A stretch of 64,000 nt of DNA from contig CAYLZE010000011.1 of assembly GCA_964388035.1 (NCBI GenBank), positions 1-64,000 of the forward strand, in the 5' to 3' direction. The stretch comes from an uncultured archaeon (GTDB lineage Archaea; Asgardarchaeota; Lokiarchaeia; Sigyniarchaeales; SOKP01). Below are positions 4,111 through 26,095 of this stretch, piece by piece. Each line of letters opens with the position of its first letter. Positions within the stretch are counted from its first letter, which is position 1. Below the pieces are notes generated by a model. It did not search any database, was not told the origin of the DNA, and worked only from the letters and a program-made list of their open reading frames with translations. The translations under genes and the position numbers were made by a program.

Positions 4111-4211
4111 ATAGATAAAAATCCTTACTTTAAAATTTAAGGCATGTGAAATGAAACTTTAAAAAACCTCATTTCCATGTTCATTATAAAAGAAAAAGAA
4201 AAGAAGAAAAA

Positions 4212-5093: not shown

Positions 5094-5179
5094 ATTATAC
5101 TTCTAATATTAAAGTTTTTGAAAATTAAATATGAAGAATCTTCAAATTTATTCCAATTAAGCAAATAATAGTAGGAAAA

Positions 5180-6085: not shown

Positions 6086-6101
6086 TGCAATATTTACGTT
6101 A

Positions 6102-7019
6102 TTAAATTCGTTTTTGCATCGGCCAATATAATTCACTAATATGAGCCCCCACGCTTTTGAGATAAAAGTAAGCAGTATCTTCTTCAACCCATCGTATGAT
6201 GGTTTCTTGAATCCCACTCCGCTTTAAATCCCAAAGACACCATTGTAAAAGAAATCCCCCCAATCCTCTTCCCCTATATTTTTTACTAACTCCTGTGGGA
6301 CCAAAGGATCCCGGAAAGCTCACAGAATGCGTGGCCCATCCGATAATTTCGTTAGTATCAGTATCAAGAGCAATAAATGATGAAATTGGGGTATTTTGGA
6401 ATGATATCTTAATTTCTGGAGGCCAAGAGGTAATATGATATACCATTGGCATGAATTGAAGGGGAATTAACCTATGTTCTTCTTCTTTTTTTGCCCTACG
6501 TATTTCTATATTCCCTATTCGAGAAGCAGGTTCAGTCTCGGAAAAATTCTTTAAACTCAGCCTTAAATTCATTCTTTCCCCTTTCCTTTTAAATCCATGT
6601 TTCTTAAGAAAGAATAAAGCTTCAGTATGCCGTGGATCTAAACCAGGAAGCCAGTAATCTGGCATTGCTGATAAGACTTCAAATTTCATCCAAAAACATC
6701 TCTTCTCTGATGTTTTTATTCGTGCGGTTAAGGACGTTAATATTTCGCTACCCAACCCCTTATATCGCCATCCTCTTGCAACGACGAAAAATTTCAGAAC
6801 AGCAACAGTTCGTCTTTTTTTAAATAAATATGGCTTTCTGAACACAACCATAAAAAATGCGATTATCTTCCCCTCTTTATCGGTGGCAGTTATAGTAAAA
6901 TCAGGAAGAAAGGCAGTACTTTCTAAAGTCGCAGATTTAAATGTCTCGAAGGAATGAGAAAGATGTTCCACATTTTCTTCACAAAAATCATATACATCTC
7001 TAATATTGTCAATTGTCAA
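6102..7019 (-). CDS. Tandem GNAT acetyltransferase
   Basis: Two acetyl-CoA-binding motifs (V...WRYKGLGSEIL and GVSKKYRGRGLGGFLL). The frame stays open upstream and the start may be ATT at 7067. Confidence 0.85.
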   Translation of the reverse strand: MTIDNIRDVYDFCEENVEHLSHSFETFKSATLESTAFLPDFTITATDKEGKIIAFFMVVFRKPYLFKKRRTVAVLKFFVVARGWRYKGLGSEILTSLTARIKTSEKRCFWMKFEVLSAMPDYWLPGLDPRHTEALFFLKKHGFKRKGERMNLRLSLKNFSETEPASRIGNIEIRRAKKEEEHRLIPLQFMPMVYHITSWPPEIKISFQNTPISSFIALDTDTNEIIGWATHSVSFPGSFGPTGVSKKYRGRGLGGFLLQWCLWDLKRSGIQETIIRWVEEDTAYFYLKSVGAHISELYWPMQKRI

Positions 7020-7282
7020 GCTATTTAAGGAGAGATTTTCAATTGAATTAGTTTTTGCTTCCGAAATATTAACATCAACTCCATGGTTTAAATTTATCTG
7101 AATTCGGTACTACTACCATTTAATATAAATAACCATGCCATAAATAACATTGGATGTAGTGCAAATCTCGCTTATTTTTTAGAGAGATTATATTATAAAA
7201 TATAGATTATAAAAACTAATTTTAACCTTCTTTAATCTCACATATAAATATTGCTTAATTAAATATTCATTGGATTATGTAA

Positions 7283-8248
7283 ATGCTTGAATCGGATATA
7301 ATTCTCATTATTCTTGCCATCATCTTCGGTATTCTATTTTTTATTGCGGACTTTTTTGAACAGAAGCATCATCGCATCCATATCTCTTTTATCGCAGGGG
7401 TTTCTATCGCCTACTTTTTTCTCGTCGTATTACCAGAAGTTGCAGAAGGACTTCCTGAAGATCCTTTACAACTCAAAATTTTTGAATTTCTATTTATACT
7501 TATTGGTTTCAGTTTTGTTCATATAACTGAAAAATTAATCTTACAAAAAGTAGAAGCAAGAAGTCAAAAAAGAATGCGAAAGTTGATGGATATGGAAGAA
7601 AATCTCGAGCTTGTCGAAGAAAAAATTGAAATACGAATAATTGATGAATTGAAACATAAAGAACTCGATATCGAGGCATTAAAACAATTAGGAGAAACCT
7701 TCTTGTCTCTGTATGATCAAAGTATTACTATTAAAGAAGAAATTAATCAATACAAGCAGAAAATTCAAGCACATGTGAATAAAGATTTATCTGACTTGCG
7801 ATATTTTACCAATTTTTTCTATCATGTATTAATTGGAATTATTATTGTAGGCCTGCTATTAATTAGCTTGTTACCAGCAATTTTATTTTTCATTTTTGGA
7901 TGGTTTCGAGCAATTATCTCCAATCGAACAGATCGTCATGTTATCTTTACGGATTTGGATATCAGTACAGAATTCAAACAAACGCCCATTAAGAAATTAT
8001 TTTCCGCAATTGCTACTATATTTGGAATAATCCTCGGGCTAATAACTGAATATATTCTCCCCGTGAAGTTAGAATTAGAATTAATCTATATTCTTTATTC
8101 TTTTATTACGGGAGTAATATTTTTTACTATTGTACGAGAAGTTTTACCCGAAAAAGAGAAGGGAAAACCACTATACTTCCTCATTGGACTAATAAGCTTT
8201 AGTGTTTTCATCTTTATCATGAGAATTCTAGAAATAATCACGTTTTAA
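7283..8248 (+). CDS. ZIP-transporter-like membrane protein with cytoplasmic coiled-coil insert
   Basis: TM pattern ISFIAGVSIAYFFLVVLPE and SFITGVIFFTIVREVLPE; charged insert of about 85 aa after TM3. Confidence 0.65.
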   Translation: MLESDIILIILAIIFGILFFIADFFEQKHHRIHISFIAGVSIAYFFLVVLPEVAEGLPEDPLQLKIFEFLFILIGFSFVHITEKLILQKVEARSQKRMRKLMDMEENLELVEEKIEIRIIDELKHKELDIEALKQLGETFLSLYDQSITIKEEINQYKQKIQAHVNKDLSDLRYFTNFFYHVLIGIIIVGLLLISLLPAILFFIFGWFRAIISNRTDRHVIFTDLDISTEFKQTPIKKLFSAIATIFGIILGLITEYILPVKLELELIYILYSFITGVIFFTIVREVLPEKEKGKPLYFLIGLISFSVFIFIMRILEIITF

Positions 8249-8516
8249 CTGATAATTATATTTGATAATTGGTGACATCATTAAACATTTCACGAGATTG
8301 TTCCAAATATTAATAATTAATAAGAAAAAAATCAATCCATCCCAATCATAATCAAAACATACATGTTAATTTTAATCTAAAGGGATATTTTATTAAAAAT
8401 TATCCTCGTGACCATAAAAATTTATAAATTAAAAAAAAAAATCATTATTGATTATTCATTTTCTCCCATAAAGTTAAAAAAATAATAATTTTATTATACT
8501 AATATTTATATGGATA

Positions 8517-9140
8517 ATGACTTGTTATCATTATGGAAATGATGAAAACATGATGAAAAACAAAAGCTTTAATAAATTACTCAGTATTGATGATGATGAT
8601 AAAAAGATCATCGAAATGATTGAAAAAAACCCTGATATCACTCATAGCGACATAGCTAAAGAGATTGAGAAATCACAACCCGCTGTAGGTGCAAGAATCA
8701 TAAAATTAGAAAGAAAGAATCTTCTCTCTAAGCAAGTGGGATTTAATATACGAAAAGTGGACATTAAAGTAGGCATTGTTTACATTTCTACTAAAGATGT
8801 AGATAGCATTGTGGAAAAAATAAAAAACTGTCCTTTTATAAATCATTCCTTCAAAATATCTGGAGAATTTAATTTGCTCTGTTTTATTGCCGCGGCGGAT
8901 TTGCAAATCATTGAGCGCTTGGTTGATCTCTGTTTTAGAAAAGATCCAAACGTGATTAACGTAAAAACGAATGTAATCATTGAATCCATACATGATTTTG
9001 TGATTCCTATTGATTTCCAGATTGAGAATTTCGAATTATATAGCTCTAATTGTGGTGCGGACTGTAATCTTGGCACAAACTTTTCTAAATTCAAGTTTGA
9101 TAAAGCTAACCCGGAAGAGGAAGAAGAAGAGGGAGCATAA
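8517..9140 (+). CDS. Lrp/AsnC family transcriptional regulator
   Basis: IDDDDKKIIEM...SDIAKEI..SQPAVGARIIKLE HTH; RAM-domain ISGEFNLL; poly-Glu tail. Confidence 0.9.
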   Translation: MTCYHYGNDENMMKNKSFNKLLSIDDDDKKIIEMIEKNPDITHSDIAKEIEKSQPAVGARIIKLERKNLLSKQVGFNIRKVDIKVGIVYISTKDVDSIVEKIKNCPFINHSFKISGEFNLLCFIAAADLQIIERLVDLCFRKDPNVINVKTNVIIESIHDFVIPIDFQIENFELYSSNCGADCNLGTNFSKFKFDKANPEEEEEEGA

Positions 9141-9295
9141 AATAAAGAATCTTAATTTTAGAAAAATTTTATTTAAAATTATTGATAAAGATTATTTTAG
9201 CAAATGTCGTCTATTATTTAATAGGTTTCAATTTAGGGCGTACAATTCAATAGTTTGCTTAAATGATTAAAATAAAAGATTTAAGAGGTACATAG

Positions 9296-9499
9296 ATGCA
9301 TTTTTTGTGGTTGCATGTTCAATCTAATGCAAATGCAACGATAGTGGCTCCTACTCAATCTCCTAATCAAAACGCAACTCAATTAGTTTTTCCCATGAAG
9401 CAAGCCGTTGCTTTAGATGCTCCGTATTTTTGTCCAAATTCTGGTGCTGAATTAGAAAACAATGGAACCCTTAAATTCTGTTCATTATGTGGGGCCTAA
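9296..9499 (+). pseudogene. Short or remnant zinc-ribbon protein
   Basis: C-terminal FCPNSGAEL...KFCSLCGA resembles a double zinc ribbon with one Cys replaced by Ser; low-complexity N-terminus. Confidence 0.4.
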
Positions 9500-9534
9500 A
9501 TCAATGAATACGTCCTTTTTTCTTTCCCTTTTTT

Positions 9535-10434
9535 TTATTCTTTTAGAATTTCCATGAATCGATAGAAATAATCGTAAGACATTTCAAAATGCTTATCTTC
9601 TTTAGAATAATTTAATCCTTCTGAGAAAATTCGTTCAAATCCTTTAGAATCTTTATTTTGTATGATTTCTTTATATTCTTTAATAATTTTTTCAAGAAGT
9701 TCCAAGACTTTTCCAAATTGAGGATTCTCCATTTGAATATCACCAAACATTTCCATCTCTCGTTGGATGATGCTTTCTGCGAATACTTTTTGAAGTAAAA
9801 ATGTCGTTCCCGTGTAATTGGTTAATTCAGAGAGAGAATTGCTGGTATTGCGAAGAAGATATAAAAAAAGAATATTAAACATGTGAGGTACTCCTAAAGT
9901 GAGAGCAACTTTTTTATCATGAACTTCTGGGGTCGTCTCAGTTATTAAAAATCCAAGGTTCTTTAACTTGGAAATCAATTCATTTACTTTTTGATTATAT
10001 TGTTGTGTACCCCCGATTCTAATGAGAATTATAACATAATTTTTAAAGTCTTTAATTCCTGGACCAAACATTGGGTGTAGAGAAAGACAATTAATTGGAT
10101 ATTTTTCGCTTGCTAATTTTAATTCTGTACATACAGAATGTTTCAAGGAGGATACATCAAAAAGGAGTGCATTTTCTTTCAAGAATGGGGTTACTTTTTT
10201 GACCATTTCTGGCGTGTCCTTAATAGGTATGGAGATGATCACGATATCCGCTTCTTGTACACTTTCCTTTAAACTCAATGAATAACTCACGGAAAATTCC
10301 TCTGCTACCAGTTTTAACCTTTCTTCATTTCTTGCCATTAAAGTAATCTCAAAATCCAAATTTTTGAAAAGTCGCGTGAAAACTTTTCCTAGACCACCCG
10401 AACCTCCAATTATGGTTACTTTTTTTCCTAACAT
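9535..10434 (-). CDS. tyrA: Prephenate dehydrogenase
   Basis: Rossmann IIGGSGGLG, DVSSLK, HPMFGP, EVHDKKVA..LGVPH. Confidence 0.92.
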   Translation of the reverse strand: MLGKKVTIIGGSGGLGKVFTRLFKNLDFEITLMARNEERLKLVAEEFSVSYSLSLKESVQEADIVIISIPIKDTPEMVKKVTPFLKENALLFDVSSLKHSVCTELKLASEKYPINCLSLHPMFGPGIKDFKNYVIILIRIGGTQQYNQKVNELISKLKNLGFLITETTPEVHDKKVALTLGVPHMFNILFLYLLRNTSNSLSELTNYTGTTFLLQKVFAESIIQREMEMFGDIQMENPQFGKVLELLEKIIKEYKEIIQNKDSKGFERIFSEGLNYSKEDKHFEMSYDYFYRFMEILKE

Positions 10435-11303
10435 TATTTTAACCCTAAAAATTCAATTATTTTCTTTTTCATTAGCATTTTATTTGGAGTTTTGCCGATC
10501 CACCATTCGAAGGCTAAAGCCCCTTGATTTACCAGCATATCTAATCCTCCTAAGGTTCTACAACCTGATTCTTTTGCATCTTTTATTAATCTCGTTTCTA
10601 AAGGATTATATATAGCATCAAAAACAAATATGCTTGAATGCAAGAACTCTTTTGGAACAAGTGACTCAGTTGCTCGAGGTTCCATGCCTATGGAAGTGGA
10701 ATTGATTAAAATATCGGAATTAATTAACTCTTTCTTGAGATTTTCTCGATTGAGTTCTTTTGCATTATATTTTTTATTGAAATTCTTTTCAAGACTCGTT
10801 GTTAAATACTTGGCATGTTGTACCGTTCGATTTAAAATAACAATTTGATCAACGTCTTCTGCAATTGAAAACGTAATAGCTCTTGCAGCCCCTCCTGCTC
10901 CTATGAATAACACTTTTTTGTTCATTAATTTGCAGCCCGCTTCAATTAAAGCCATTTTACACCCTAAAGCGTCCGTATTTTTACCTAATAAAACACCATT
11001 CTCATTTTTAATCGTGTTTACAGCTCCAATTTGTACAGCAAGTGGATCAACCTCATCTAAATATTGTATAACATTAATTTTATGTGGGATCGTAACATTT
11101 ATCCCTTTAATTCTTAAAGCTTTAAATCCTTCTAAAGCATATTTAAGATCATTGGGATGAACGTCAAATGCCACGTACACGTAATCCAAGTTTAAATCTC
11201 TTATTGCGGCATTATGCATGGGTGGGCTCATGCTATGCCCTATTGGATGCCCAATCACGCATAAAATCTTTGTTTTCCCTGTAATTGAAAAATCTACGGA
11301 CAT
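10434..11303 (-). CDS. aroE: Shikimate dehydrogenase
   Basis: GHPIGHSMSP.MHN, NVTIPHK, GAVNT, NTD, GAGGAARA, DAIYNP.ET, MLVNQG; stop overlaps the tyrA start. Confidence 0.95.
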   Translation of the reverse strand: MSVDFSITGKTKILCVIGHPIGHSMSPPMHNAAIRDLNLDYVYVAFDVHPNDLKYALEGFKALRIKGINVTIPHKINVIQYLDEVDPLAVQIGAVNTIKNENGVLLGKNTDALGCKMALIEAGCKLMNKKVLFIGAGGAARAITFSIAEDVDQIVILNRTVQHAKYLTTSLEKNFNKKYNAKELNRENLKKELINSDILINSTSIGMEPRATESLVPKEFLHSSIFVFDAIYNPLETRLIKDAKESGCRTLGGLDMLVNQGALAFEWWIGKTPNKMLMKKKIIEFLGLK

Positions 11304-11506
11304 AAAAGAAGTAAATTCTTGTTATAAAATCATGTTGATATTTTTTCTAATGATAGAGATAATAATTCTTTAACTAATATAACTCGGTTCAATTAAAAAA
11401 AAATAAACTCTATAATGAAATTAATTCTAAAACTCAATCTTTTGAAATTTTGTTTTTTATTCTCGATTTCTTAAAACTTAAATTAATAAATTTAAATCAT
11501 ATTATT

Positions 11507-14269
11507 ATGAATTCTTCAATTGACTTTGCATCTGTTTCCTTAAGTGATATAATAGGAGATTTAACTCGTGAAGGTTTTTTTATCTATTGTGGGGCGGGTA
11601 TCTCAATTCCAGCTCCGACATGTGCTCCATCTTGGTGGGTGTTGACCGAAGAAATTTTAAAAGGCTTTTTTAATACAATCCCAAAAGAATGGGGTTTACC
11701 GAATGATCTAATTATTAAGGATCCCGATATAAAACCGGAAGAAGTTTTTGAAACATTTGCTTATGTTTTTGATGAATTGTTATATGATGTATTCAAAGCT
11801 CTTGATTTTGGTTCGTTCAATGCTAATCATCAATTAATTGCCCGTCTTGCAAGTTCGCGGAAATTAAAAGCGTGTTTTACTACCAATTTTGATACGTTTA
11901 TTGAAAAAGCATTAAATGCAGAGGGAGTTGAATTCGAGCTTATAATTGATAATGGTGAATTTGAAAACCTTCTCTCAAAATTAAACTCCGAGGGCATAGG
12001 AAATAAATTCATATTATGTAAGGTACATGGTACTACCGAACGTCCCAAAACCATTGTAAGTGTTGCCTCGGCCTATAAAAGTTCCAAGGGTTTTTCTACT
12101 CCCAAGGCAGACGTATTAACGTGGTTATTGAATCGATATCCTTGCCTATTTTTGGGGTATTCGGGTTGGGATTTCGAACATTTGAATTACCGGAGGTTTT
12201 GGGAAAGAGCAGGAAAAAACCTAAAACAAATATATTGGAATCGCAAACCTGGTGAAACTGATGGTCCCGTTTTTTCGGAAATTTTCCATGCTTGTATAGA
12301 TAGATTTACCTTTTGCGAAGCAGATTTACCTGACGGCATGGTTTCCGCATTGAATCAGTCATCCATCCCCAATTTAAATCTAAATGAATTAAACCTACTA
12401 AAACCTTCTGAAAATGAGCAGTTTTGGGGAAAAAATAAGAATGCTCGCATGCAATTCTTTGGAGATTGGTCTGATTCTCTCCCAACTGCGCATAAGTTAG
12501 CAGCAGCCATGACGGAAGGAGAATTGCTTTCTGCACGATTTAAAGAAAAACAAAAGCAATTAATCGAGAGTTCAAAATCTCAAACAAGCTATACAGGACC
12601 CGATCCCCATCTTCAACAAGAACTTCAAGAATTGAGCATTCAATTATCAACCCAACAAATATCCCTTGAAGATTACACTAAAAAATCATTTGAAATTCAA
12701 TTAAAAATGCAGTTAGGACCAGTTCGAGAAGAATATAGACCTTATATCACTTCGATTTTCTTAGATGATAAATTTCCAGGATTTACGGATGATTCCTTAA
12801 AGCAGCAACAATTATTACCTAAAATTATTGCCTTATTAGATCGATTCGAACCAGAACGGGCTGTAGAATTAGCAATCGAAATTATGAAGAAAGATGAGGA
12901 AGCTACTTTAAAGGGAGAACCCCATACTACCGCCGATATGACGTTAAATTTAATGTATCAATCAATAATTTCACCCAATGATGAAGAATGGCAACCATAT
13001 TACGAGAAAATGTTGGTTGAAAAAGAGAAGTACTTGCAGGGAGACATTGATTTGAACACTTTTAAAGCCTCGTTGATGGCAATTCTTAATGAATCTAAAG
13101 AAACCCAATTAGGAGTTACCATTCCCGTAGATGCTTTGCTAAACCGCCTAATGGAAGTATTCGTCGCGGGGTCGAAAAATGTAGAAGAATTTAAAATTAA
13201 TCTCGAAGCATTTAATCTAGCTGCTAATTATAGATATGCGTACATTAATTCGATCATGTATAAAACATCAGAATATAAGAAAATCGAAAGTATTTGTCAT
13301 GAGCAAACAGTTCCAATTGATCAATCAGCTTCTGCTCCGAAGATATCGCCAGAAGCAGAAAAACAATTAATTGAACTGGGATTAAAATATTCTCAAGGAA
13401 AAATTACTCTGGATGATTATCAAAAACAAGCAATTGCTATTTCTATGGGGAACATTCAAACACAACCACAAACAGGGCCAAATCCTTCGGAAGAAATGCC
13501 CATTGTTCCTAACAATTTACTTGAAGAGTATGACAAGAGAATAAGAGATTGGATGCGTCCCGTTCTCGATGCTCAATATGAATTCTTTGGTGATGAGTTA
13601 AATGAGACGAGAATATTAATCGAAATGACGATATTTGGAATTTGGATAGCTGGAACCCAATACCTGGATATAAAAAGTGGAACGAAAGTTCAACAGCTAC
13701 AAAATCAAGGTCTTTATCCAAAAGTTATCTCTAATCCATCAGTTACCAATTATCTGTGGAAAAAGAATGAAGAATGGATAAAAAAAGCAATAAAAGAATT
13801 ACCTAACAAGTTTATGCAAAGATTATGTTTTTACCTAATTACTTTCTCTGAAATGACAAATGATTTTCAATTATGCAGGGAAATTACTGAAAGGAGCCTG
13901 GAGTTAACGGAAGGAGTAATTAATGAAACGGTCTATCATAATATTCCTATTTGTTTAGCGTCCTTTTATCATGAACAGGGAGATTTGGAAAATGCCTTGA
14001 AATATTATTCTCTCGCTCTTGATGGAGTTAAGATGTTCGTCCCATCTGTTTGGTCGGATGTGGCAATTTATCAAGCGGCTCAAATGAATGCTCAAAAAGG
14101 TAATATTGAAGAAGCTTTAAGGATAATAGGAACTTATCATTCAGAATATAAAGGTAATTTACCTCCCTATGCTCCTCCTGCTAGAAAATTATGTCTTGAA
14201 TTTGCAGAACACCTTGCAATTCAATTAGGTTATAAAAATGCAAGAGAGGCTATAGGATCATTAATTTAA
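11507..14269 (+). CDS. SIR2-like (SIR2_2) domain protein with long helical region and C-terminal TPRs
   Basis: GAGIS, TTNFD, KVHG, FLGYSGWD; C-terminal TPR-like LASFYHEQGDLENALKYYSLAL; first ATG at 11507. Confidence 0.85.
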   Translation: MNSSIDFASVSLSDIIGDLTREGFFIYCGAGISIPAPTCAPSWWVLTEEILKGFFNTIPKEWGLPNDLIIKDPDIKPEEVFETFAYVFDELLYDVFKALDFGSFNANHQLIARLASSRKLKACFTTNFDTFIEKALNAEGVEFELIIDNGEFENLLSKLNSEGIGNKFILCKVHGTTERPKTIVSVASAYKSSKGFSTPKADVLTWLLNRYPCLFLGYSGWDFEHLNYRRFWERAGKNLKQIYWNRKPGETDGPVFSEIFHACIDRFTFCEADLPDGMVSALNQSSIPNLNLNELNLLKPSENEQFWGKNKNARMQFFGDWSDSLPTAHKLAAAMTEGELLSARFKEKQKQLIESSKSQTSYTGPDPHLQQELQELSIQLSTQQISLEDYTKKSFEIQLKMQLGPVREEYRPYITSIFLDDKFPGFTDDSLKQQQLLPKIIALLDRFEPERAVELAIEIMKKDEEATLKGEPHTTADMTLNLMYQSIISPNDEEWQPYYEKMLVEKEKYLQGDIDLNTFKASLMAILNESKETQLGVTIPVDALLNRLMEVFVAGSKNVEEFKINLEAFNLAANYRYAYINSIMYKTSEYKKIESICHEQTVPIDQSASAPKISPEAEKQLIELGLKYSQGKITLDDYQKQAIAISMGNIQTQPQTGPNPSEEMPIVPNNLLEEYDKRIRDWMRPVLDAQYEFFGDELNETRILIEMTIFGIWIAGTQYLDIKSGTKVQQLQNQGLYPKVISNPSVTNYLWKKNEEWIKKAIKELPNKFMQRLCFYLITFSEMTNDFQLCREITERSLELTEGVINETVYHNIPICLASFYHEQGDLENALKYYSLALDGVKMFVPSVWSDVAIYQAAQMNAQKGNIEEALRIIGTYHSEYKGNLPPYAPPARKLCLEFAEHLAIQLGYKNAREAIGSLI

Positions 14270-14465: not shown

Positions 14466-15767
14466 ATGTCCATTAATTATAAGCAAATTTTACTTAATCT
14501 AAAAAAGGAATTACCTTACTTGAATGAACTTGCTATAATTAAGAACGATTTTAACATAATTTACTCCACGGAAAAGTGGAATAATGAAAGTTTTTCTCAA
14601 TTCGTTTCTGATTGGTCTGCAACAAAAATACAAGATCTTACTTTTAATGGAATTAATTTTAAAAAGATTACTTCTACTTCAGATAGAATTATAGCATTAA
14701 ATCAAGAAGAGGGTTATCTTGTGGGCGTTAAGGACCGTAATTGGTTCATCATCGCCCAGATAGAATCTGATGGTATCATACCTTTTACCATAACCGAATT
14801 ATCGAGGTTGTTAGCAAGCTTACGTTTAAATAAACCACTTATAATTCGAGAAAAGCTGCTTAAAGAGAAAGATATAGAAAATGAAGATAAATTAAAAACT
14901 TTAAAAACAAAAGATAATCAAAAATCTATTAACAAAAATAATACCGGAATTGTGCCATTTAGTGCTCGTTTGATGGCCTATTATCGAAGTTTGGAAATAA
15001 ATAGGAAAAATTCACTCATCATCGATCCCTTGGCAACACGACTTGCTGGCGATTTAAAATCCTATTTTAAAAAGCATATTCGCTATTCTGAAATGGATTA
15101 TCCTATCGTTCGTTCCTACTTTATTGAAAATGCACTACTGACACCATGGTGTAGAGAAAAAGAAAGTTCTCAAATAATGCTTTTAGGAGCCGGATTAGAT
15201 ACCCGCGCATATCGATTTAAACCTTTAGAATTAAATAATCATGCGATTTTTGAACTTGATTTTCCCCAAATAATAACCTATAAAGAATCGGTATTATTCG
15301 AGGAACAACCTTTGTGCTCGCTTAAAAGGATTCCAGCGGATTTAACAACAGAAGAATGGCTCCCCCTTCTAAAGGAATCAGGTTTTTCTAAAAATTTACC
15401 CACAATCTGGATATTAGAGGGCCTTGTATATTATATTGAATTGCATCTTTGCATAAAATTACTTCAAAATATAACTCGTTTGAGTAATGAGGAAAGCCAA
15501 ATCTTTATAGATCTAATGCAACTTTCCCGATGGTTGAAATCAGATGATTATCTTTATTTGAATTCTTCTGATACTATTAATGGACACTTTAGATGGGGGA
15601 TGGATATAAAGGATGTCGCAAGATTCTTTTGGGATATTGGATGGGATGTCAAATGTGATTTTGCTGATGAGTACGATCAAGGTCGAGATGTGGGACAAAA
15701 AGCAATGGTATTCGTTCATGGAAAGCTTAAATCTCATGTGGAATGTGAAGAAAGATATAAAAAATAA
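14466..15767 (+). CDS. Profilin-like domain fused to LCM-family SAM-dependent methyltransferase
   Basis: C-terminal part has ARLMAYYRSLE, DPLA..LAG, LGAGLDTRAYR, FELD, WILEGLVYY. The N-terminal ~120 aa fits the Asgard profilin pattern (AII...IIYSTEKW...FNGINF....TSDRIIA.N...GYLVG). Confidence 0.8.
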   Translation: MSINYKQILLNLKKELPYLNELAIIKNDFNIIYSTEKWNNESFSQFVSDWSATKIQDLTFNGINFKKITSTSDRIIALNQEEGYLVGVKDRNWFIIAQIESDGIIPFTITELSRLLASLRLNKPLIIREKLLKEKDIENEDKLKTLKTKDNQKSINKNNTGIVPFSARLMAYYRSLEINRKNSLIIDPLATRLAGDLKSYFKKHIRYSEMDYPIVRSYFIENALLTPWCREKESSQIMLLGAGLDTRAYRFKPLELNNHAIFELDFPQIITYKESVLFEEQPLCSLKRIPADLTTEEWLPLLKESGFSKNLPTIWILEGLVYYIELHLCIKLLQNITRLSNEESQIFIDLMQLSRWLKSDDYLYLNSSDTINGHFRWGMDIKDVARFFWDIGWDVKCDFADEYDQGRDVGQKAMVFVHGKLKSHVECEERYKK

Positions 15768-18561: not shown

Positions 18562-19097
18562 GTGAGATAAAGTTTTTGTAATTAAAACTGCATAACATTC
18601 AATATTATTTAACTAATCTTGTTATAAATTAAAAAAAGGACCTCTCAAATAATATTTTATTAAACTAATTTAAACGCGGGAATTAGATCGGCGTTATAAT
18701 GACCGGATCCATTTTGTTAGTTAATTGCTAATCCATTAATATCAGTTTATTAACATTTTTAGGCTCATGATTGCCATTCATGAAAGATCACCCATGAGGT
18801 TTTAATAAATCATCTCAGTCCTAAGTATTTAAAATTCAAAAAACTTAACTGAAATTGAAAGACAAATGCTGTGTAGAGTATCGTTAAGACAATTGGAGAT
18901 GATAATCAATAATGCTGCATGTTATTCATCACTCAAAAATAAATCATACCCGGTAAATTACCATACCATCGATTTTCCAGGCATTTGTAAGCAGTTATTT
19001 GTTACTTGGAAGAATTAAGTGGTTATTAATTAGGTTAATATAGAAATGTAGTACAGATAAAAACAAGAATTAATCAAGAAAGACAAAATGATGCATA

Positions 19098-19346
19098 ATG
19101 AGTTTAAAATTTAATATATCTGAAATTTTGGATAAATTTGATCTTGATGAGAGAGAAAAGAAGAATCTTATTCATCTTTTTGATTTAACGAATTTTTTTT
19201 ACGACGATGAGCAAAATCTCACCAAAACGTTTAATTTGGTGAAGAAAGCTCGGGAGAAATTACGAGAACGAATTCAAGAAATGTTTGAATTTGAACTTAT
19301 AAATGAAGAAATGAATGATATATCTAATACAGATAAAATGGAGTAA
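19098..19346 (+). CDS. Small acidic helical hypothetical protein; first gene of the SMC-MoxR-vWA operon
   Basis: 82-aa ORF ending 4 nt before the ATPase ATG; its 3' end supplies a GGAG Shine-Dalgarno. Confidence 0.65.
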   Translation: MSLKFNISEILDKFDLDEREKKNLIHLFDLTNFFYDDEQNLTKTFNLVKKAREKLRERIQEMFEFELINEEMNDISNTDKME

Positions 19347-19350
19347 TACC

Positions 19351-21879
19351 ATGTTAGAGTCAATATGGTTAAAAAATTTTAGAAGACATCGGGATATCCA
19401 CTTCGAATTTGATGATAAATTCAATCTAATACATGGAAGAAATAATGCCGGGAAGTCCACGATCTTTTACGCCATAGAATATGGTCTTTTTGGAAATGTT
19501 CAAGGGTTTAAAAAGATCTCGCAATTAACCCATTTTAATCAAAAAACCATTGGAGTTCAAATAATATTTAAGGGAAAGGATAATGAGCGTTATAAACTAC
19601 AACGCATGCACAGATTATCCGGCAAGAGTTTGTCGGCTAAAGGTTTCTTTACTTTAAAAAAACTGGTTAATGGAGGAGAAGCGTATTTATTAAGCTCCGA
19701 CCATGGAGATCGGGAAGAAGATTTATCATTGAAGCTGAATCAAATTTTGGGCGTGACAAAACGCTTTTTTGAGACAGGAATTCACTTTTATCAGGGATCG
19801 GTATCTGAAATTTTAAAAGGAGATAAAAAATTAGACATTGTTTTTGGGATCAGGGCTGCAATAGCATTGGCAGACGAATTTAAGGACGCGGCATTAGAAT
19901 TTGAAAGAGACATAAAAAGCATCAATGTATTTCAGGCTACTTTAGAGCAAACTAGAAATGAAAAATCAGAATATCAAAAAAGACTAGGTACTCTTACCAC
20001 AGAACAAGAAAACCTGTCAACAACCATTCAACAAAAAGAACAAGAATTAAGTAATTTTGAAGGTTTTAAGGAGCAATCTCAACTTATTGCATCAGCTGTT
20101 GAAGCTCTTGAAGAAAAAGAAAAATCCCTTGAAAAGGGGAAAGTTCAGGAGGGGATCATAAAAAAAGACCTTGAGGAGATTATAAATAAATACGGCTCTG
20201 AGGCAAAATTGATTGATCTAAATGAGAAAGAAAAAAGGACGATGGAGGAAATTAATAAATCCATTATAACCTCTGATAAAAATATGGAAACCCAACAAAA
20301 TGAACGAAGAAAATTGGATAATGAAAAAGTGCAAATAGAAACAATGCAGAAACAAAAGGAGAACATTATAAAAGAAATTGAAACTATAATAAACGCGACA
20401 GGAAATAAAGAGAATTTGCTTTCTAAAATAATTGATGAAAAGACCAAATTAGAAAAAACAAATTCAGATTTAAGCTCTTTAGAAGAGGAAAGTAATTTTC
20501 TACAAGATTTTTTTAGGAAGATCGAAAGAGAAAAGGGAGACATTGAAGGTATTCTACAACGCAGAGAAGCATCAAAAGATAAACCCCAATGTGAATATTG
20601 TGGAAATCCCATCGATCCTTCTAAGATAAAAGAGGAAATCAAAATATGTAGTCAAAAATTGAGTAATATCAATGAGGAGATTAAAAAGAATGAGGAAAGG
20701 AAGGAAATTATAAAAACTGAATTAGCTTCCTTACGAGAAGACCAAAAACTATTGAACAATACAATCTTGACATTAGAAAGTTCCCATCAAAAAATAGTAA
20801 ATTTAGAGGAAAAATTGAAAAATGGATTATATGAGGAATTAGAAAAAAAAGGTAGAGCGGTTATAGATTCAATCAAAGTCCTTGAGGATTCATTAAAAAC
20901 CGAAAAAGAAACTCTCATTGAATTAAGAGAAAAAGAAAAACAAGCTCAACAACAATTTAATGAAACGCAATCAAAATTAGAACATTTTAAAGGGTTGATT
21001 AAAAAATCCGAAGATATTAGATTGAAAATTGAAAGTGCGGAAATAGTGTACGAACAAGAAAGAAAAAGACTTTTAAAAACCTTCATGGGAGTAAGGCAAC
21101 AATTAAGTGCGAGAATTGAGGAATATGAAGAAGACAAAGATGAGATTCATCATGAACTTGTGCATAAAATTAACACTATTGTTCAGAAAATAGAGAAGTT
21201 AGAAGATAACTTTTCATTGCAAAAATTGACTGAAATTAAAGAGGAATTTAAAGAATTAATCATAACGAAAATTTCTGAACTTTCGACAAGCATCAATCAT
21301 CTAAAGGAACAAGGAGAGAAAATGGTAAACCAATTAGATGACATTAAGAACAATATTAAACGATTGGATAAAGACATCGCAAAAGCAGGAAAGGAAATAG
21401 AAATTCTGGAGGAAAAGGAGAAAATTGCCCAAAAATATCGTAAATATCAAGAAAATTTTGAAAGAGTTCAATCCGTGATTAGAGAAAATGTATGCTCGCT
21501 CTTAGAAGAGCAAATTCTTGAATTACATAGAAATCTTTCCACGACGGATGAATTCGAAAAGGTACACGTTGATAATAATGATTACAGTCTCTCCATCACA
21601 CCTCATAGTTTAAAAGAAAAAGAATTTTATCCGGCGCATTTATATGAAGGAGGAGGTCATAAGCTAATTTTAGGTCTTTCCTACAAATTTTCATTAGGGA
21701 AAATAATAGGTAATGCTCCGTTTCTCCTTATTGATGAACCAACTGAATTCATGGACGAGAAAAATCGTGTCAATCTCTTATCAACCTTATCTACCATACT
21801 CCAGAATAATCAGGTCATGCTCATTACCCATCAAGATGTGAATAAAATCAATTGTAAGAAGAAAATCGAAATTAATTAG
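19351..21879 (+). CDS. Rad50/SbcC-like SMC-family ABC ATPase with zinc hook
   Basis: LKNFRRH, Walker A GRNNAGKST, Q-loop FYQG, coiled coils flanking CEYC, atypical signature YEGGGHK, Walker B LLIDEPT, H-loop ITHQ; ATG 19351 follows GGAG. Confidence 0.9.
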   Translation: MLESIWLKNFRRHRDIHFEFDDKFNLIHGRNNAGKSTIFYAIEYGLFGNVQGFKKISQLTHFNQKTIGVQIIFKGKDNERYKLQRMHRLSGKSLSAKGFFTLKKLVNGGEAYLLSSDHGDREEDLSLKLNQILGVTKRFFETGIHFYQGSVSEILKGDKKLDIVFGIRAAIALADEFKDAALEFERDIKSINVFQATLEQTRNEKSEYQKRLGTLTTEQENLSTTIQQKEQELSNFEGFKEQSQLIASAVEALEEKEKSLEKGKVQEGIIKKDLEEIINKYGSEAKLIDLNEKEKRTMEEINKSIITSDKNMETQQNERRKLDNEKVQIETMQKQKENIIKEIETIINATGNKENLLSKIIDEKTKLEKTNSDLSSLEEESNFLQDFFRKIEREKGDIEGILQRREASKDKPQCEYCGNPIDPSKIKEEIKICSQKLSNINEEIKKNEERKEIIKTELASLREDQKLLNNTILTLESSHQKIVNLEEKLKNGLYEELEKKGRAVIDSIKVLEDSLKTEKETLIELREKEKQAQQQFNETQSKLEHFKGLIKKSEDIRLKIESAEIVYEQERKRLLKTFMGVRQQLSARIEEYEEDKDEIHHELVHKINTIVQKIEKLEDNFSLQKLTEIKEEFKELIITKISELSTSINHLKEQGEKMVNQLDDIKNNIKRLDKDIAKAGKEIEILEEKEKIAQKYRKYQENFERVQSVIRENVCSLLEEQILELHRNLSTTDEFEKVHVDNNDYSLSITPHSLKEKEFYPAHLYEGGGHKLILGLSYKFSLGKIIGNAPFLLIDEPTEFMDEKNRVNLLSTLSTILQNNQVMLITHQDVNKINCKKKIEIN

Positions 21880-21888
21880 GTGAAAAAA

Positions 21889-22407
21889 ATGATTGAAACC
21901 GGTATTGAAAATGCTGTAAAAAAGTTTAGAGAAGACGTTCAAGGACTTTATTTAGCAAAATTAGAGTATTTAGACCAAATTTTTACATTTGCTCAAGAAC
22001 AAGCGAAAAATCACGTATCCATGGAAGATTTTGAGAGAAAAATGAGCTTTAATTTCTTAAAAGAAATTATTCTCAGGGTTAAAAATGATGAATTGTCTCA
22101 TAAAGATTTTTTTTTAGAAGGATTAAAAAGTAGTGATTTTTGGAAACCCTTAGCAAAATTAGTGCTCTTTAAGCGCATCGAAGAATTGCGAAAATGCAAG
22201 GTTCTAAAAAAAGGAAAAAAATATGATGTTTCTGGTCTTAAAGAAACTTTTATTGGAAAATATATCATGGATCGATTAAAATTCGAACGAAGATCCATGT
22301 TGGACGAAATAGAATACCTAAAAATAACTAGTGCTATAAAAAAATTGAAGTATGAAGTTCCTCTTTTAATCGAACCAACTACAACAGAGAAATTTTTTAA
22401 AGATTAA
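21889..22407 (+). CDS. Basic helical hypothetical protein in the SMC-MoxR-vWA operon
   Basis: Directly follows the ATPase stop; AGGTGA Shine-Dalgarno before ATG 21889; no recognised motif. Confidence 0.7.
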   Translation: MIETGIENAVKKFREDVQGLYLAKLEYLDQIFTFAQEQAKNHVSMEDFERKMSFNFLKEIILRVKNDELSHKDFFLEGLKSSDFWKPLAKLVLFKRIEELRKCKVLKKGKKYDVSGLKETFIGKYIMDRLKFERRSMLDEIEYLKITSAIKKLKYEVPLLIEPTTTEKFFKD

Positions 22408-22434
22408 ATTAGAATAAAAGAAAGTTGAAAATAA

Positions 22435-23364
22435 ATGACTAAAAGTGATGTAGAAAAAAAGGAAGATTCAGATAATTTTTCTGAATTGATGGAAAAAAGC
22501 AAAATTATTGATATTCGTGAAAATATTAATTTAGTTTTAGAAGGACAATATCTCTATGCATATGAGGCCATGATGGATGCATATAACGCAGGATTGTTCG
22601 TGGGCTTAGTGGGACCGGTTGGTTGTGGAAAAACAGCTTTATGCAGGAAATTTGCCTACGATTTGAAAAGAGAGTTCTATTGGGTCACCTTTTCAGATCT
22701 CGTTAGACCCGCAACTTTAATAGGATCGTTTGATCCTACTCTTGTTTTTAAATATGGCTTTGCAGCAGAATCTTACATCCCGGGTCCTTTTACATTAGCC
22801 TCCTTAAAGGGAGGCGTATTTCTGGCAAATGAATTGAATCGTGGGGATGAATATGTTTTGAATAGCATGTTAGATGCCATGGAAGAAAGACGATTATACA
22901 TTCCCCAACTTAAAACTTGGATGAAAGCCAGAGATGAATTTTATGTCATCGCCGCAATGAATCCCTCGGAACTCAAGGGTACCAGAAAATTGCCCTCAGC
23001 CATTAAAGATAGAATCAAAGTCTGGATTCACTTGGGTTATCCTCCCAGGTCCTTAGAACAGAAGATCATGGTTGCAAATTGCCCCGAATATCAACTCTCA
23101 GCAATGATGCAAGAGAAAATCATTGAATTAATGATAAAGATTCGTGAGGATCCCATGGTTGAAATTCCTCCCAGCTTGCGTACCAGTATTGGTCTTGCTC
23201 GCTTCATATCTCAGCGTGCTAAGAGGTTAAATGTGACAGTAGATAACAAGTTAGTCGCAGAATGCGCTAAATTAATTCTTCCTGACGCCCTAGAATTGCG
23301 TCCTGGAAGAGAGGTTAATGCATTTTTAAAAAAAATCTTGACAAGTGTTATTGGTGTTGCTTAA
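22435..23364 (+). CDS. MoxR-family AAA+ ATPase (CoxD/CbbQ/NorQ-like)
   Basis: GPVGCGKT, LIG...PGP, variant Walker B FLANELNR, AMNP, LPSAIKDR, PPSLR. Confidence 0.9.
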   Translation: MTKSDVEKKEDSDNFSELMEKSKIIDIRENINLVLEGQYLYAYEAMMDAYNAGLFVGLVGPVGCGKTALCRKFAYDLKREFYWVTFSDLVRPATLIGSFDPTLVFKYGFAAESYIPGPFTLASLKGGVFLANELNRGDEYVLNSMLDAMEERRLYIPQLKTWMKARDEFYVIAAMNPSELKGTRKLPSAIKDRIKVWIHLGYPPRSLEQKIMVANCPEYQLSAMMQEKIIELMIKIREDPMVEIPPSLRTSIGLARFISQRAKRLNVTVDNKLVAECAKLILPDALELRPGREVNAFLKKILTSVIGVA

Positions 23365-23384
23365 AATTCAAATGAGATGATAAA

Positions 23385-25949
23385 ATGGCTCAAAATAATT
23401 CCATGGATTCTATAAAAGTTGGAGACTTTTGGAATAATCAAGTATTAGAATGGAATCCGCTTACCTTTACGGTGGAATTCATTTATAGAATGCGTCAATT
23501 AAAACATAATCTTTTAAATTCTCCTAGTACACGACAAGCGATTGCGATTCCTAAATTAATGACTGCAATGTATTATCGAAAAATAAATCTCATCCCTGAT
23601 GATTACATAAAAGCAGCCGTAATTACAACTCCTATTGAAGACCAAGAAATCGCTGCTAAAATTGCTCATGATATCATCTTTTCCAAGCCAGAAGAGGTTA
23701 GGAAAAAAAAGATTAAGAGGGAAAGTAAGGAAACTAAACCAGGAAATAAAGTGATTACACAAGGATCGGATTTTATGGAAGATCTCCTCTCAGAGATAAT
23801 GGATGAAGAACTCCTTGATGAAAACTTGGATATTGAGGCTTTAATGGATCAAACTATTGAAGAAGTATCATCTTTAATGGATTTTATCAATAGTATCTAC
23901 GAAGAAGCAAGAAAAGGGTTGGAGCCTTATCAGAGCTTGGTCGATATTTTAGAGAGCAGAAGTAATTATCAAAATGTTTTAGGAAAGGGAATTTCTACAA
24001 TAGACCAATTGAAGGAATATCTTCATCAAATAATACAGAGAGAAAAAAGTACGCTTTTCCCTCAAGAAATTAAGTCTTCAATTAATTTAGGATGGGGACA
24101 AGACCTAATCAATCAAGATACGGCTCCTTGGATTAAAGCATCTGCCATGTATGGGACAAATAATCCCGACTTTAAGAATTATCTAAAGGATATATTAGCA
24201 AACGAAGACGTGGGAACTGCAGCTAAGACTAATGATTATCTGCAAAAAATTGGTATGGATCCGAAAAAGGCAGAGGATTTAACTAAACAATTAGTTGACC
24301 GAGTTTCTGATATTATGGATATTTCTGAAATCGCGAATGTATTGAGATCCGTTCCCGAATTTGATGAAAAAAAAATTATTCCTAATAGCCTAAATCGAGA
24401 TGTAGGTTTATCCTTTAATATCACCCGCGCATTAGATGAACAATTTTCTACCAATTTCACTAATCACTTTTTTGACGAATGGAGTAAAACCAATCCAGAT
24501 CCTTCATTATCCGAACTTTATCAAACACAAACTAAAAGTCCCTATTGGAATCAAAAAGTGAATGATTTTGTATCCTCAAAACTTACCGATTTATCGAGTA
24601 CTAATGGGAGTGCAGCGAATAATTTGATGAATCTTGCGAAAGATTTGAAAAATTATTCTATGGAATCTGAATATGAGCTTTGTGCTGATCTTTTTAATGA
24701 AAAAGCTGGTCAGGCGGGAATGAAAGCACTTGAAAAAGAAGTAGATATCAATCAATTTAAAAATAAATTGGAATCTTTAATCGAAAATGATATTAAGATA
24801 ATCCCGTCAGATGTTCTTCAAATGTCAAAGAAACTAGGCATTCCAGAAGTTGATGTGATTGAAATTCTAGGCGGGACTTTCGAGCTTTTAATTTCAATGA
24901 CCGAGAATAAAGTAGGAACTTTTGATCGATACTTTAAAATATTAAAAAATTTAAACTCCTTAACTAATGATCAGACCCGCGAATTGATGAGTAAGGCACT
25001 TGATGTTAACAATTTCCAAGCGTTAGGTGCTTTAGGCCATGCTAATTTGGGAAATGCGTTTAAAGTTTGCGAGCAGAATTTTCCGAATGCCTCCTTACAA
25101 TTATCAGAATCCCTTTCAGCAGGACCAGGTGACAATTTATTACTGCAATGGTTCTTACACCGTCATTATATTCCTCCAAAAGCTAAAGAGTTTGTTAGAA
25201 ATTTGGTTAAAGATGCTTTAATCAAAATTGCTTTAAATATGATTTCAAACCAGAGAGGAAGCGGAGAAAAGGGGTTGGTCCCTACAAATAAGCTGAGAAC
25301 TTTCCTTGAAGGAGATGACATGGACTTAATTGACATTGATGCATCAATTGAAAATATCATCATGCAAGGGAAATCATTAGAAATGGTATGTACAGAGGAT
25401 CTAATGGTAATGGAAGCTGAAAAAGGGCGAGTTTCAATATGCTTTCTATTAGATATCTCCGGTTCAATGAGTGGAATGAAATTAGCTGCTTGCTCCATTG
25501 CTGTAATGGTATTAATTGGAACCCTAAGAGCGGAAGAAGTGGCAATTTGTTTTTTTGAATCGAGTACGCATGTTGTTAAAGAATTTGGAGATGAAAAAAA
25601 TTTAGATGATGTGGCTGATGAATTATTAGACCTCCAAGCTCGGGGTGGGACGCAAGTTCAGAGAGCATTAGAATGGGGGGGAAATCAGTTGAAAGAAACA
25701 ACTTCAGAGTTGAAAGTATGTTTTTTATTGACGGATTGTGAATTTTCTGAATCAAATGAAGTACTCATTACGAATTTAGAAGAATATGTGAACCAAAAAG
25801 TGGAATTTCTCTTAGGGGTAAATACCAAGTCCTATTCAAAAAGAACTTCAGAATGCATTTTGGAAATGACAAAGGGTAAAATAGTATATATTTTAGAGAT
25901 AATGGATATTCCTAAAGTTCTCCGAGAGGTATTGGATCAAATCGGATAA
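23385..25949 (+). CDS. Large vWA-domain protein (CoxE-like partner of MoxR)
   Basis: C-terminal DIDASIE, MIDAS DISGSM, GGT, LLTD; about 600-aa helical N-terminal region. Confidence 0.88.
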   Translation: MAQNNSMDSIKVGDFWNNQVLEWNPLTFTVEFIYRMRQLKHNLLNSPSTRQAIAIPKLMTAMYYRKINLIPDDYIKAAVITTPIEDQEIAAKIAHDIIFSKPEEVRKKKIKRESKETKPGNKVITQGSDFMEDLLSEIMDEELLDENLDIEALMDQTIEEVSSLMDFINSIYEEARKGLEPYQSLVDILESRSNYQNVLGKGISTIDQLKEYLHQIIQREKSTLFPQEIKSSINLGWGQDLINQDTAPWIKASAMYGTNNPDFKNYLKDILANEDVGTAAKTNDYLQKIGMDPKKAEDLTKQLVDRVSDIMDISEIANVLRSVPEFDEKKIIPNSLNRDVGLSFNITRALDEQFSTNFTNHFFDEWSKTNPDPSLSELYQTQTKSPYWNQKVNDFVSSKLTDLSSTNGSAANNLMNLAKDLKNYSMESEYELCADLFNEKAGQAGMKALEKEVDINQFKNKLESLIENDIKIIPSDVLQMSKKLGIPEVDVIEILGGTFELLISMTENKVGTFDRYFKILKNLNSLTNDQTRELMSKALDVNNFQALGALGHANLGNAFKVCEQNFPNASLQLSESLSAGPGDNLLLQWFLHRHYIPPKAKEFVRNLVKDALIKIALNMISNQRGSGEKGLVPTNKLRTFLEGDDMDLIDIDASIENIIMQGKSLEMVCTEDLMVMEAEKGRVSICFLLDISGSMSGMKLAACSIAVMVLIGTLRAEEVAICFFESSTHVVKEFGDEKNLDDVADELLDLQARGGTQVQRALEWGGNQLKETTSELKVCFLLTDCEFSESNEVLITNLEEYVNQKVEFLLGVNTKSYSKRTSECILEMTKGKIVYILEIMDIPKVLREVLDQIG

Positions 25950-26095
25950 AACTATTTCTTCTCTCAAAAGAAAAATAAAGAAAAAGCAGAATCAGTCAAA
26001 TGGTTAGGTTTTGGATAATTCTGCGAAATCTACTTTTTTTTTAATAAATAACCATGTATGAAATCAATGGCTTTAAGTAAAGAAGCCATATTAAG

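Follow-up and report, generated by a model that had tools for sequence, protein, structure and literature searches.

The 64,000-nucleotide (nt) stretch of DNA analysed here, referred to below as the window, belongs to contig C11 of a 5.47-Mb Lokiarchaeial (Promethearchaeota) metagenome-assembled genome, designated G000. At positions 19098-25949 it carries a cassette of five co-oriented open reading frames (ORFs) on the plus strand, in which a Rad50-like ATPase is combined with a MoxR-type AAA+ ATPase and a large adaptor that has a von Willebrand factor A (vWA) domain with a metal ion-dependent adhesion site (MIDAS). The five genes, with the evidence for each assignment, are as follows:

19098..19346, plus strand: small acidic protein, 82 amino acids (aa); ORF and alignment
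19351..21879, plus strand: Rad50-family zinc-hook ABC ATPase, 842 aa; Pfam, NCBIfam, structure matches, motifs and tree
21880..22407, plus strand: p175, 175 aa; alignments and AlphaFold model
22435..23364, plus strand: MoxR-type AAA+ ATPase, 309 aa; Pfam AAA_5/AAA_3 and structure matches
23385..25949, plus strand: large vWA/MIDAS adaptor, 854 aa; Pfam, alignment and structure model

According to the ORF listing of the window, the genes are separated, in this order, by gaps of 4, 0-9, 27 and 20 nt. The reading frame of the ATPase is open from position 19315, and the start at 19351, which yields 842 aa, was chosen by alignment with orthologs; p175 can start either with GTG at 21880 (175 aa) or with ATG at 21889 (172 aa). 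The 82-aa protein and p175 have no Pfam match above the curated cut-off. An earlier, sequence-only reading of this DNA had described five co-oriented and tightly spaced genes without an adjacent Mre11/SbcD, NurA or HerA gene. Both descriptions were borne out, the former by the ORF listing and Pfam, the latter by the cassette flanks in the window, which contain housekeeping genes (MFS transporter, methyltransferases, shikimate kinase).

All five ORFs are genuine genes, because orthologs of each were found in the same order in many genomes. At least 14 Lokiarchaeial and about 20 bacterial loci show the constant five-gene order, as do Thor- and Kariarchaeota. This order is shared by the related genomes G001, G008, G036, G022 and Candidatus Lokiarchaeum ossiferum and by further metagenomic contigs; identities to the window proteins in five related genomes were 47-68% for the small protein, 43-54% for the ATPase (37% in one comparison with L. 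ossiferum), 38-61% for p175, 77-87% for MoxR and 42-63% for the vWA protein. Bacterial homologs were reached via p175, in Sandaracinus and related contigs of 72-73% GC, where the five genes are consecutive; the bacterial vWA protein has 943 aa. For a wider scan the MoxR alignment was compared with one genome per species and ORFs were mapped on all 50 returned loci. Among the mapped loci the full cassette was present, on the archaeal side, in many Promethearchaeota, two Thorarchaeota and one Kariarchaeote, and on the bacterial side in Myxococcota (Kofleriaceae, Archangium, Haliangiales, Sandaracinaceae), Planctomycetota (Gemmata) and several other bins. Carrier genomes span about 32% to 73% GC, and in many loci, where the starts are well called, stop and start codons overlap (-4 or -1 nt) at the junctions. 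On the basis of these overlaps and of the gene order common to two domains of life, the five genes are one conserved unit and a real operon; the synteny that had been proposed for checking in Asgard and other archaea thus exists, in bacteria as well. Conservation from Asgard archaea to myxobacteria, with a motor that is still 60% identical, implies a specific, selectable function.

The cassette is also rare: its ATPase was found in 23 of 400 Asgard-phylum genomes and in 4 of 401 sampled Myxococcota. Viral contigs yielded no orthologs, only distant AAA+ matches of 27-32% identity, and among the loci examined outside Lokiarchaeia there was no conserved extra neighbour. Rad50/SMC-type ATPases and MoxR-vWA remodellers have each been well studied, and no report of their joint action was found. 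Full-text literature searches returned no description of the combination, although a mention in a classification of ABC ATPases is possible, and a comparative paper on MoxR-vWA systems mentions no SMC, Rad50 or ABC ATPase partner (Kaur et al. 2020, PMC7159879). The earlier statement that no named system joins the two modules agrees with these searches and with the merely generic PADLOC matches described below. That the two modules could be mere neighbours with unrelated functions is hardly credible. The weakness of the sole co-folding result (p175 with the vWA protein, see below) would fit such a view; against it stand the same five-gene order in two domains of life and at about 32% to 73% GC, the -4 nt junction overlaps and the lack of any other common neighbour.

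Some loci deviate from the common pattern. In L073 (Promethearchaeota bin DZ2M.341) the ATPase nests among bacterial sequences of the head-domain tree and MoxR is nearer the bacterial type, which indicates either a bacterium-to-archaeon transfer or a mis-binned contig, as judged from the sequences. The MoxR and vWA genes are 0.5-2.5 kb apart in L049 (11606-13858), L088 (Sandaracinaceae), L084 and L068, the insert in Sandaracinus being an oppositely oriented gene for a GH123-like protein; evidently, the cassette tolerates insertions between these two genes. Locus L040 (9224-12464; genome G015, contig C68) looks like a decayed cassette: a truncated MoxR of 220 aa (79% identity) and an intact vWA ortholog (53%) are adjoined by a radical SAM/SPASM gene, and the genes for the small protein, the ATPase and p175 are not found upstream.

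The ATPase matches the Pfam families AAA_15, AAA_23, AAA_27 and SMC_N, and for both lobes of its head the top matches among solved structures are archaeal Rad50 heads. Its top NCBIfam matches are likewise Rad50 models, the best of them (PRK03918) with 113 bits, which does not reach the cut-off of 700 bits. Walker A lies at nt 19435-19461, and the Walker B/D-loop sequence LLIDEPTE begins with nt 21721. Halfway along the coiled coil there is a CxxC zinc hook (CEYC, nt 20590-20601, residues 414-417 of 842). An alignment of 19 ATPase homologs showed conservation of Walker A, Q-loop, Walker B/D-loop, H-loop and hook. The ABC signature, YEGGGH at nt 21643-21660, is deviant: a serine-less (E/Q)GGGH was present in 19 of the 19 homologs and in the bacterial versions. 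Bacterial ATPases are shorter (697-702 aa), with the hook CESCGQPID and the signature QGGGH; the hook motif CE(Y/S)CGxPID is common to the archaeal and bacterial enzymes. In a tree of head domains the cassette ATPases formed one clade (Shimodaira-Hasegawa-like approximate likelihood ratio test, SH-aLRT, 98), apart from the Lokiarchaeial Rad50 clade, E. coli SbcC and SMC. Of the four families against which the sequence-only reading had proposed a phylogeny (Rad50, SbcC, LmuB, Sph), this tree covered Rad50 and SbcC, and the ATPase lies apart from both. Judged by its sequence, the ATPase is Rad50-like yet distinct from canonical Rad50/SbcC. It shares with Rad50-Mre11 and SbcCD the ABC head, the long antiparallel coiled coil and the apical CxxC hook, but it has the signature (E/Q)GGGH in place of the canonical SGG(E/Q), and instead of an Mre11/SbcD nuclease the cassette provides two small proteins and a MoxR-vWA pair.

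The possibility that this ATPase is the only Rad50 of the genome, with mre11 relocated, was ruled out. A separate rad50-mre11 locus, as the earlier reading had proposed to look for, was found on contig C94 of G000 (4203-13017, minus strand), where a superfamily 1 (SF1) helicase, Mre11 and Rad50 form an operon. The Rad50 encoded there, of 902 aa, is the better Rad50 of the two; immediately upstream of its gene are those for an Mre11-type phosphoesterase and a helicase of about 1,480 aa. The cassette ATPase shows only 23% identity to this Rad50 over 222 aa.

The same canonical break-repair operon was also seen at L044:870-9696 and L048:579-9514. Its helicase, of about 1,480-1,610 aa, is an SF1 enzyme with AAA_11/AAA_12 domains (Upf1/Dna2-like) and is followed by Mre11 and Rad50. 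This helicase-Mre11-Rad50 order of Lokiarchaeia differs from the herA-mre11-rad50-nurA order of thermophilic archaea. Nearby in L043 and L046 are a DNA ligase gene and two small genes of no assigned function.

The position of the cassette relative to these genes varies among Lokiarchaeia. In seven loci (G008, G036, G022, L044, L048, L060, L062) it lies directly downstream of SF1 helicase-Mre11-Rad50, in the same orientation and with a gap of -4 to about 110 nt after rad50, so that in several Lokiarchaeia it appears to share an operon with the only mre11-rad50 genes of the genome. In L046 and L056 the cassette is followed by a DNA ligase gene and a convergent Rad50-Mre11 pair. In the window, in G001 and in L. 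ossiferum it is apart from mre11-rad50. The description of the cassette as "Mre11-less" is therefore correct for the cassette itself and for the window, but does not hold for the surroundings of the cassette in many related Lokiarchaeia. No Metallophos gene was detected in or beside the cassette in the window or in any bacterial, Thor- or Kariarchaeal locus.

The sequence-only reading had also compared the ATPase with that of Lamassu defence systems. With the PADLOC LmuB model (PDLC03859) the cassette ATPase scored 103.7 bits, and two Mre11-adjacent canonical Rad50s scored 94.9 and 124.5 bits. The LmuB match is generic, because canonical Rad50s score alike on the same model. No PADLOC or Pfam match to LmuA, LmuC or DUF4297 was found in the other four cassette proteins. 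The Lamassu analogy thus received no specific support, and membership in Lamassu was rejected as unsupported. In the PADLOC run that had been suggested for the five proteins, all matches were generic ATPase matches and none was specific to one defence system. The cassette resembles Lamassu and Wadjet in having a nuclease-less Rad50/SMC-like coiled-coil ATPase, small dedicated partners and a patchy distribution. It differs from them in that LmuA, LmuC, JetA, JetB and JetD were not detected and its loci have no defence-island context.

The 82-aa protein has a pI of 4.7 and a conserved core of about 65 aa. Its NLTK motif (nt 19215-19226) is invariant in an alignment of 12 sequences (A1), which includes the variant described next; bacterial homologs have NLTRT instead. 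As far as the sequences tell, the gene of the Rad50-like ATPase is always partnered by the gene of this protein. Support for this comes from three loci, termed type B (L042:6012-13876, L043:5933-13702, L047:5943-13667), in which the gene order is Band_7/SPFH protein, two unassigned proteins (about 355 and 330 aa), small protein, Rad50-like ATPase and a leucine-rich repeat (LRR) protein, and in which no p175, MoxR or vWA gene is present. The type-B small proteins are 47-48% identical to the 82-aa protein and keep NLTK. The type-B ATPases, 32-37% identical to that of the window, keep the zinc hook and fall within the Lokiarchaeial cassette clade of the head-domain tree; by their sequences, type B is a derived variant of the cassette. 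As the small protein is retained in the absence of p175, MoxR and vWA, it forms the core together with the ATPase, and the partner module is exchangeable. The type-B loci are near helicase-Mre11, PNK3P or DNA ligase genes.

The Band_7 and LRR proteins of type B bear on two alternative explanations of the cassette. The first is a system directed against foreign DNA, in which the ATPase would sense the DNA ends of phages or plasmids, like LmuB of Lamassu or JetC of Wadjet, and MoxR-vWA would transmit or execute the response, for example by sequestering or disassembling the target. We regard this as a serious alternative, though less likely than the reading preferred below. It would account for the rare and patchy distribution with cross-domain transfer and for the kind of hosts, which are large-genome Myxococcota, Planctomycetota and Asgard archaea. 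It would also fit the partner swap in type B, where LRR and Band_7 proteins take the place of p175-MoxR-vWA, both being domains that recur in the MoxR-vWA ternary conflict systems (PMC7159879). With these systems the cassette shares the combination of a MoxR-vWA pair and a third module, the "complex" large-genome prokaryotes as hosts and, in type B, the Band_7 and LRR-type scaffolds; by Pfam it differs from them in having no beta-propeller, VMAP or effector domains, and the match of its MoxR to bpMoxR (17.6 bits) is below the cut-off of 27. A gene for a SIR2_2-TPR protein about 5 kb upstream in the window (see below) and the proposed descent of Lamassu from Rad50-Mre11 (PMC12663957) can be counted in favour of defence. 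Against it, no system-specific PADLOC model matches any of the five proteins, the LmuB score is equalled or exceeded by Mre11-adjacent Rad50s, and an effector of the LmuA, LmuC or nuclease type is not present. Moreover, the flanks of 28 loci are of housekeeping character, with PADLOC matches for 2 of 118 flanking proteins (one reverse transcriptase, one ZacA-like), no ortholog was found on viral contigs, and in several Lokiarchaeia an operon is apparently shared with the only mre11-rad50 of the genome.

The second explanation, which appears unlikely, is a structural tether that does not act on DNA, i.e. a cytoskeletal or membrane scaffold comparable to arcadin-4 of the crenactin cluster and assembled by a MoxR-vWA chaperone. 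The ATPase has NCBIfam matches to arcadin-4 (59.2 bits, N-terminus only) and ASRP (80.5 bits, coiled coil only), type-B loci add Band_7/SPFH and LRR proteins, and in L. ossiferum an actin homolog is encoded about 6 kb away. These two scores are, however, far below the respective cut-offs of 860 and 300 bits and weaker than the Rad50 matches, the zinc hook and the motifs of the head are Rad50-like, the genes that recur beside the cassette in Lokiarchaeia belong to DNA repair and not to the cytoskeleton, and the five proteins contain neither predicted membrane segments nor Pfam cytoskeletal domains.

In the confident AlphaFold model of p175 (predicted local distance difference test, pLDDT, 89.8), a helical bundle at the N-terminus precedes a basic alpha/beta domain at the C-terminus. 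The C-terminal half is basic in both domains of life (pI 9.7 in archaea, 10.1 in bacteria), and the protein ends with the motif PTxTExFF (nt 22372-22398), which is conserved in archaea and bacteria (alignments A2 and A4); the bacterial homologs are 32% identical and end with EPTTTERFF. Searches with the fold gave no match at E <= 0.001 with Foldseek against the PDB, a best Z of 6.0 to a generic helical bundle in the wide VIA search, and TM scores of 0.35 or less in the ESM Atlas shape search. Resemblances of the C-terminal domain to UvsW-N, MutS_I and IF2_N were weak and not significant, and were discarded.

When p175 was co-folded with residues 150-854 of the vWA protein and Mg, the score was 0.58 (best control, 0.25), which was rated as weak support with no interface reported. 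Three runs agreed in at least 83% of the contacts, and the pLDDT of the partner was at least 75. In the calibration, 58 of 80 solved complexes and 2 of 110 mismatched pairs attained this mark; only 7 of the 80 did so with a score of 0.60 or less, and so did both of the passing mismatches. Since custom alignments and a riding Mg were used for p175-vWA, these counts apply to it only approximately. The model is a hint, not a demonstration, that p175 may bridge the ATPase and the MoxR-vWA module. Together with synteny it leads us to infer that MoxR-vWA acts on the ATPase module.

Of the cassette components, MoxR is conserved best, with 77-87% identity among archaeal orthologs and 60% to the bacterial ones. 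Its Pfam matches are AAA_5 (69.5 bits) and AAA_3 (53.4 bits). The Walker A GPVGCGKT (nt 22612-22635), the DR motif with the arginine finger and the PPSLR motif of sensor 2 are conserved. In Walker B, LANELNR, the usual Asp is replaced by Asn132 (nt 22828-22830), giving ANE rather than ADE; this Asn is invariant across the MoxR orthologs and occurs also in one paralog. Among solved structures the AAA domains of midasin (Rea1/MDN1) gave 105 bits, bacterial MoxR 49 and NorQ 34, the NorQ/CbbQ range being 25-34 bits.

The vWA protein matches Pfam VWA_2 and VWA at residues 685-789. Its model (pLDDT 80.9) comprises a helical bundle (25-98), a disordered charged linker (101-148), an all-alpha region (150-621) and the vWA domain (637-853). 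The MIDAS is intact, with DxSxS at nt 25452-25466, Thr756 at nt 25650-25652 and Asp784 at nt 25734-25736, and its residues D690, S692, S694, T756 and D784 are invariant in an alignment of 18 sequences (A3). Foldseek and VIA placed the vWA domain closest to the vWA domain of NorD in the NorQD complex (VIA Z 18.2, root mean square deviation 2.9, 191 residues aligned) and to the MIDAS domain of midasin. For the 470-residue all-alpha domain, Foldseek with the model of the whole protein returned only spurious low-TM TPR matches; the Atlas feature search (0.77) was uninformative, and in the wide VIA search, where this domain was searched only within the larger model, the list was filled by the vWA domain. 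Residues 26-60 of the bacterial vWA protein resemble the MoxR lid in BLAST (E 0.002), but in a profile-profile comparison E was only 0.066.

The pair thus resembles NorQ-NorD and CbbQ-CbbO, in which a MoxR ATPase of about 300 aa with AAA_5/AAA_3 matches precedes a large protein that carries a MIDAS-vWA domain at its C-terminus. It differs from them in that the presumed client is an SMC/Rad50-like ATPase complex and not a metalloenzyme or Rubisco, Walker B has Asn for Asp in every ortholog, the all-alpha domain of the adaptor has no recognised relative, and by solved structures MoxR is nearer to the AAA domains of midasin than to NorQ. In NorQD, the vWA domain reaches into the AAA+ pore with a finger, and the client is acted on as the motor pulls a linker of the adaptor (PMC13036017). 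This finger and pulling mechanism is taken here as a working analogy for the cassette motor.

Several MoxR-vWA pairs insert metals (PMC13036017), and the client envisaged here has an invariant CxxC metal site. It could be imagined, then, that the pair works like NorQD, CoxDE or the chelatases, loading or exchanging the hook Zn2+ of the ATPase or another metal instead of remodelling a DNA-bound complex. The type-B ATPases, which keep the hook yet have no MoxR-vWA, make this improbable. To our knowledge, canonical Rad50 and SbcC need no MoxR-vWA-type chaperone either.

Taken together, these observations lead us to prefer, tentatively and at somewhat less than an even chance, a DNA-tethering Rad50-like complex that is loaded, released or reset by a NorQ/NorD-type motor and takes part in DNA-break handling. 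The five genes would encode one machine of two modules. In the first, the Rad50-family ATPase, probably dimerised through its hooks and with heads that engage on ATP, would have the acidic 82-aa protein and p175, with its basic C-terminal half, as dedicated subunits and, by homology to Rad50/SbcC, would bind or tether DNA, probably at ends or breaks. The second would consist of a MoxR AAA+ hexamer and the adaptor, whose MIDAS-vWA domain is expected to grip the client. The first module is the most likely client, probably contacted through p175, and ATP-driven pulling would load, release or reset the Rad50-like clamp. The likeliest role is an accessory one in DNA-break handling beside Mre11-Rad50. 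Since the cassette has no nuclease, the complex would tether or mark DNA, not cut it; nor was a toxic or enzymatic effector domain detected in the five proteins by Pfam, PADLOC or NCBIfam. The Rad50-type architecture and the helicase-Mre11-Rad50 and ligase neighbourhoods in Lokiarchaeia speak for the repair role.

Several points weigh against this interpretation. DNA binding is predicted solely from homology. Only in Lokiarchaeia is the cassette linked to mre11-rad50, perhaps as the result of no more than one or two ancestral arrangements; the linkage is absent in the window, in L. ossiferum, in Thor- and Kariarchaeota and in all bacterial loci. A rare and patchy spread with evident cross-domain transfer fits conflict systems better than core repair. 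As the ABC signature is a serine-less GGG and Walker B of MoxR contains Asn, the activities of both ATPases may differ from those of their models. The p175-vWA co-fold gave weak support and no interface, and type B, which works without MoxR-vWA, adds a Band_7 protein that does not point to DNA.

If the tethering interpretation is correct, the cassette may be a new accessory route of handling broken DNA beside Mre11-Rad50 in archaeal relatives of eukaryotes; a new kind of immunity to foreign DNA would be the other plausible role. A bolder reading, to which we give a lower chance than to the defence alternative, is that the cassette represents an unrecognised class of SMC/Rad50-type machine, a DNA clamp that works without nuclease or kleisin coupling and that a midasin-like AAA+/MIDAS motor of its own actively loads or extracts. 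Such a machine would be the prokaryotic equivalent of the way in which SMC and repair complexes of eukaryotes are loaded and unloaded at the expense of ATP. It would have passed between Asgard archaea and myxobacteria or planctomycetes and, in Lokiarchaeia, would be wired into a eukaryote-like repair locus of Dna2-type helicase, Mre11, Rad50 and ligase. The modules as such are familiar, in contrast to their coupling, to the two small subunits and to the deviant catalytic motifs. Moreover, the cassette supplies a MoxR-vWA motor with a defined candidate client encoded alongside it, which is missing for most of that family, and myxobacterial homologs of the Archangium type might make it experimentally tractable.

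Other MoxR-vWA genes were encountered in Asgard archaea. A paralogous trio is encoded in G000 on contig C39 (25786-31580; locus L035:4787-10581, minus strand) and consists of a MoxR of 311 aa (37% identical to that of the cassette), a vWA protein of 830 aa (29% over its entire length) and a protein of 783 aa for which Pfam gave no match. In most genomes of the same family this vWA paralog has full-length relatives (about 830-860 aa, 28-32% identity), and from these sequences the trio looks like a second, far more widespread MoxR-vWA system. MoxR relatives of 53-62% identity with large vWA partners, but with no Rad50-like gene, were found in Heimdall-, Hermod- and Jordarchaeia (L077, L090-L093).

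Two further features delimit the cassette in the window:

18562..19097, no strand assigned: AT-rich intergenic stretch, presumed promoter region; ORF map and sequence
26030..26046, plus strand: T-rich tract, possible archaeal terminator; inferred from reading the sequence

The former separates the first cassette gene from a divergent MFS transporter gene. The latter begins about 85 nt past the stop codon of the vWA gene and, to judge from its position, is a possible terminator used jointly with the convergent gene. Upstream of the cassette, a 433-aa protein encoded at 14466-15767 has a leucine carboxyl methyltransferase (LCM) domain at residues 169-336, preceded by about 165 residues with no domain match. 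The 939-aa protein encoded at 11450-14269, about 5 kb upstream of the cassette, combines a SIR2_2 domain with C-terminal TPR repeats and is a candidate NAD-depleting immune protein.

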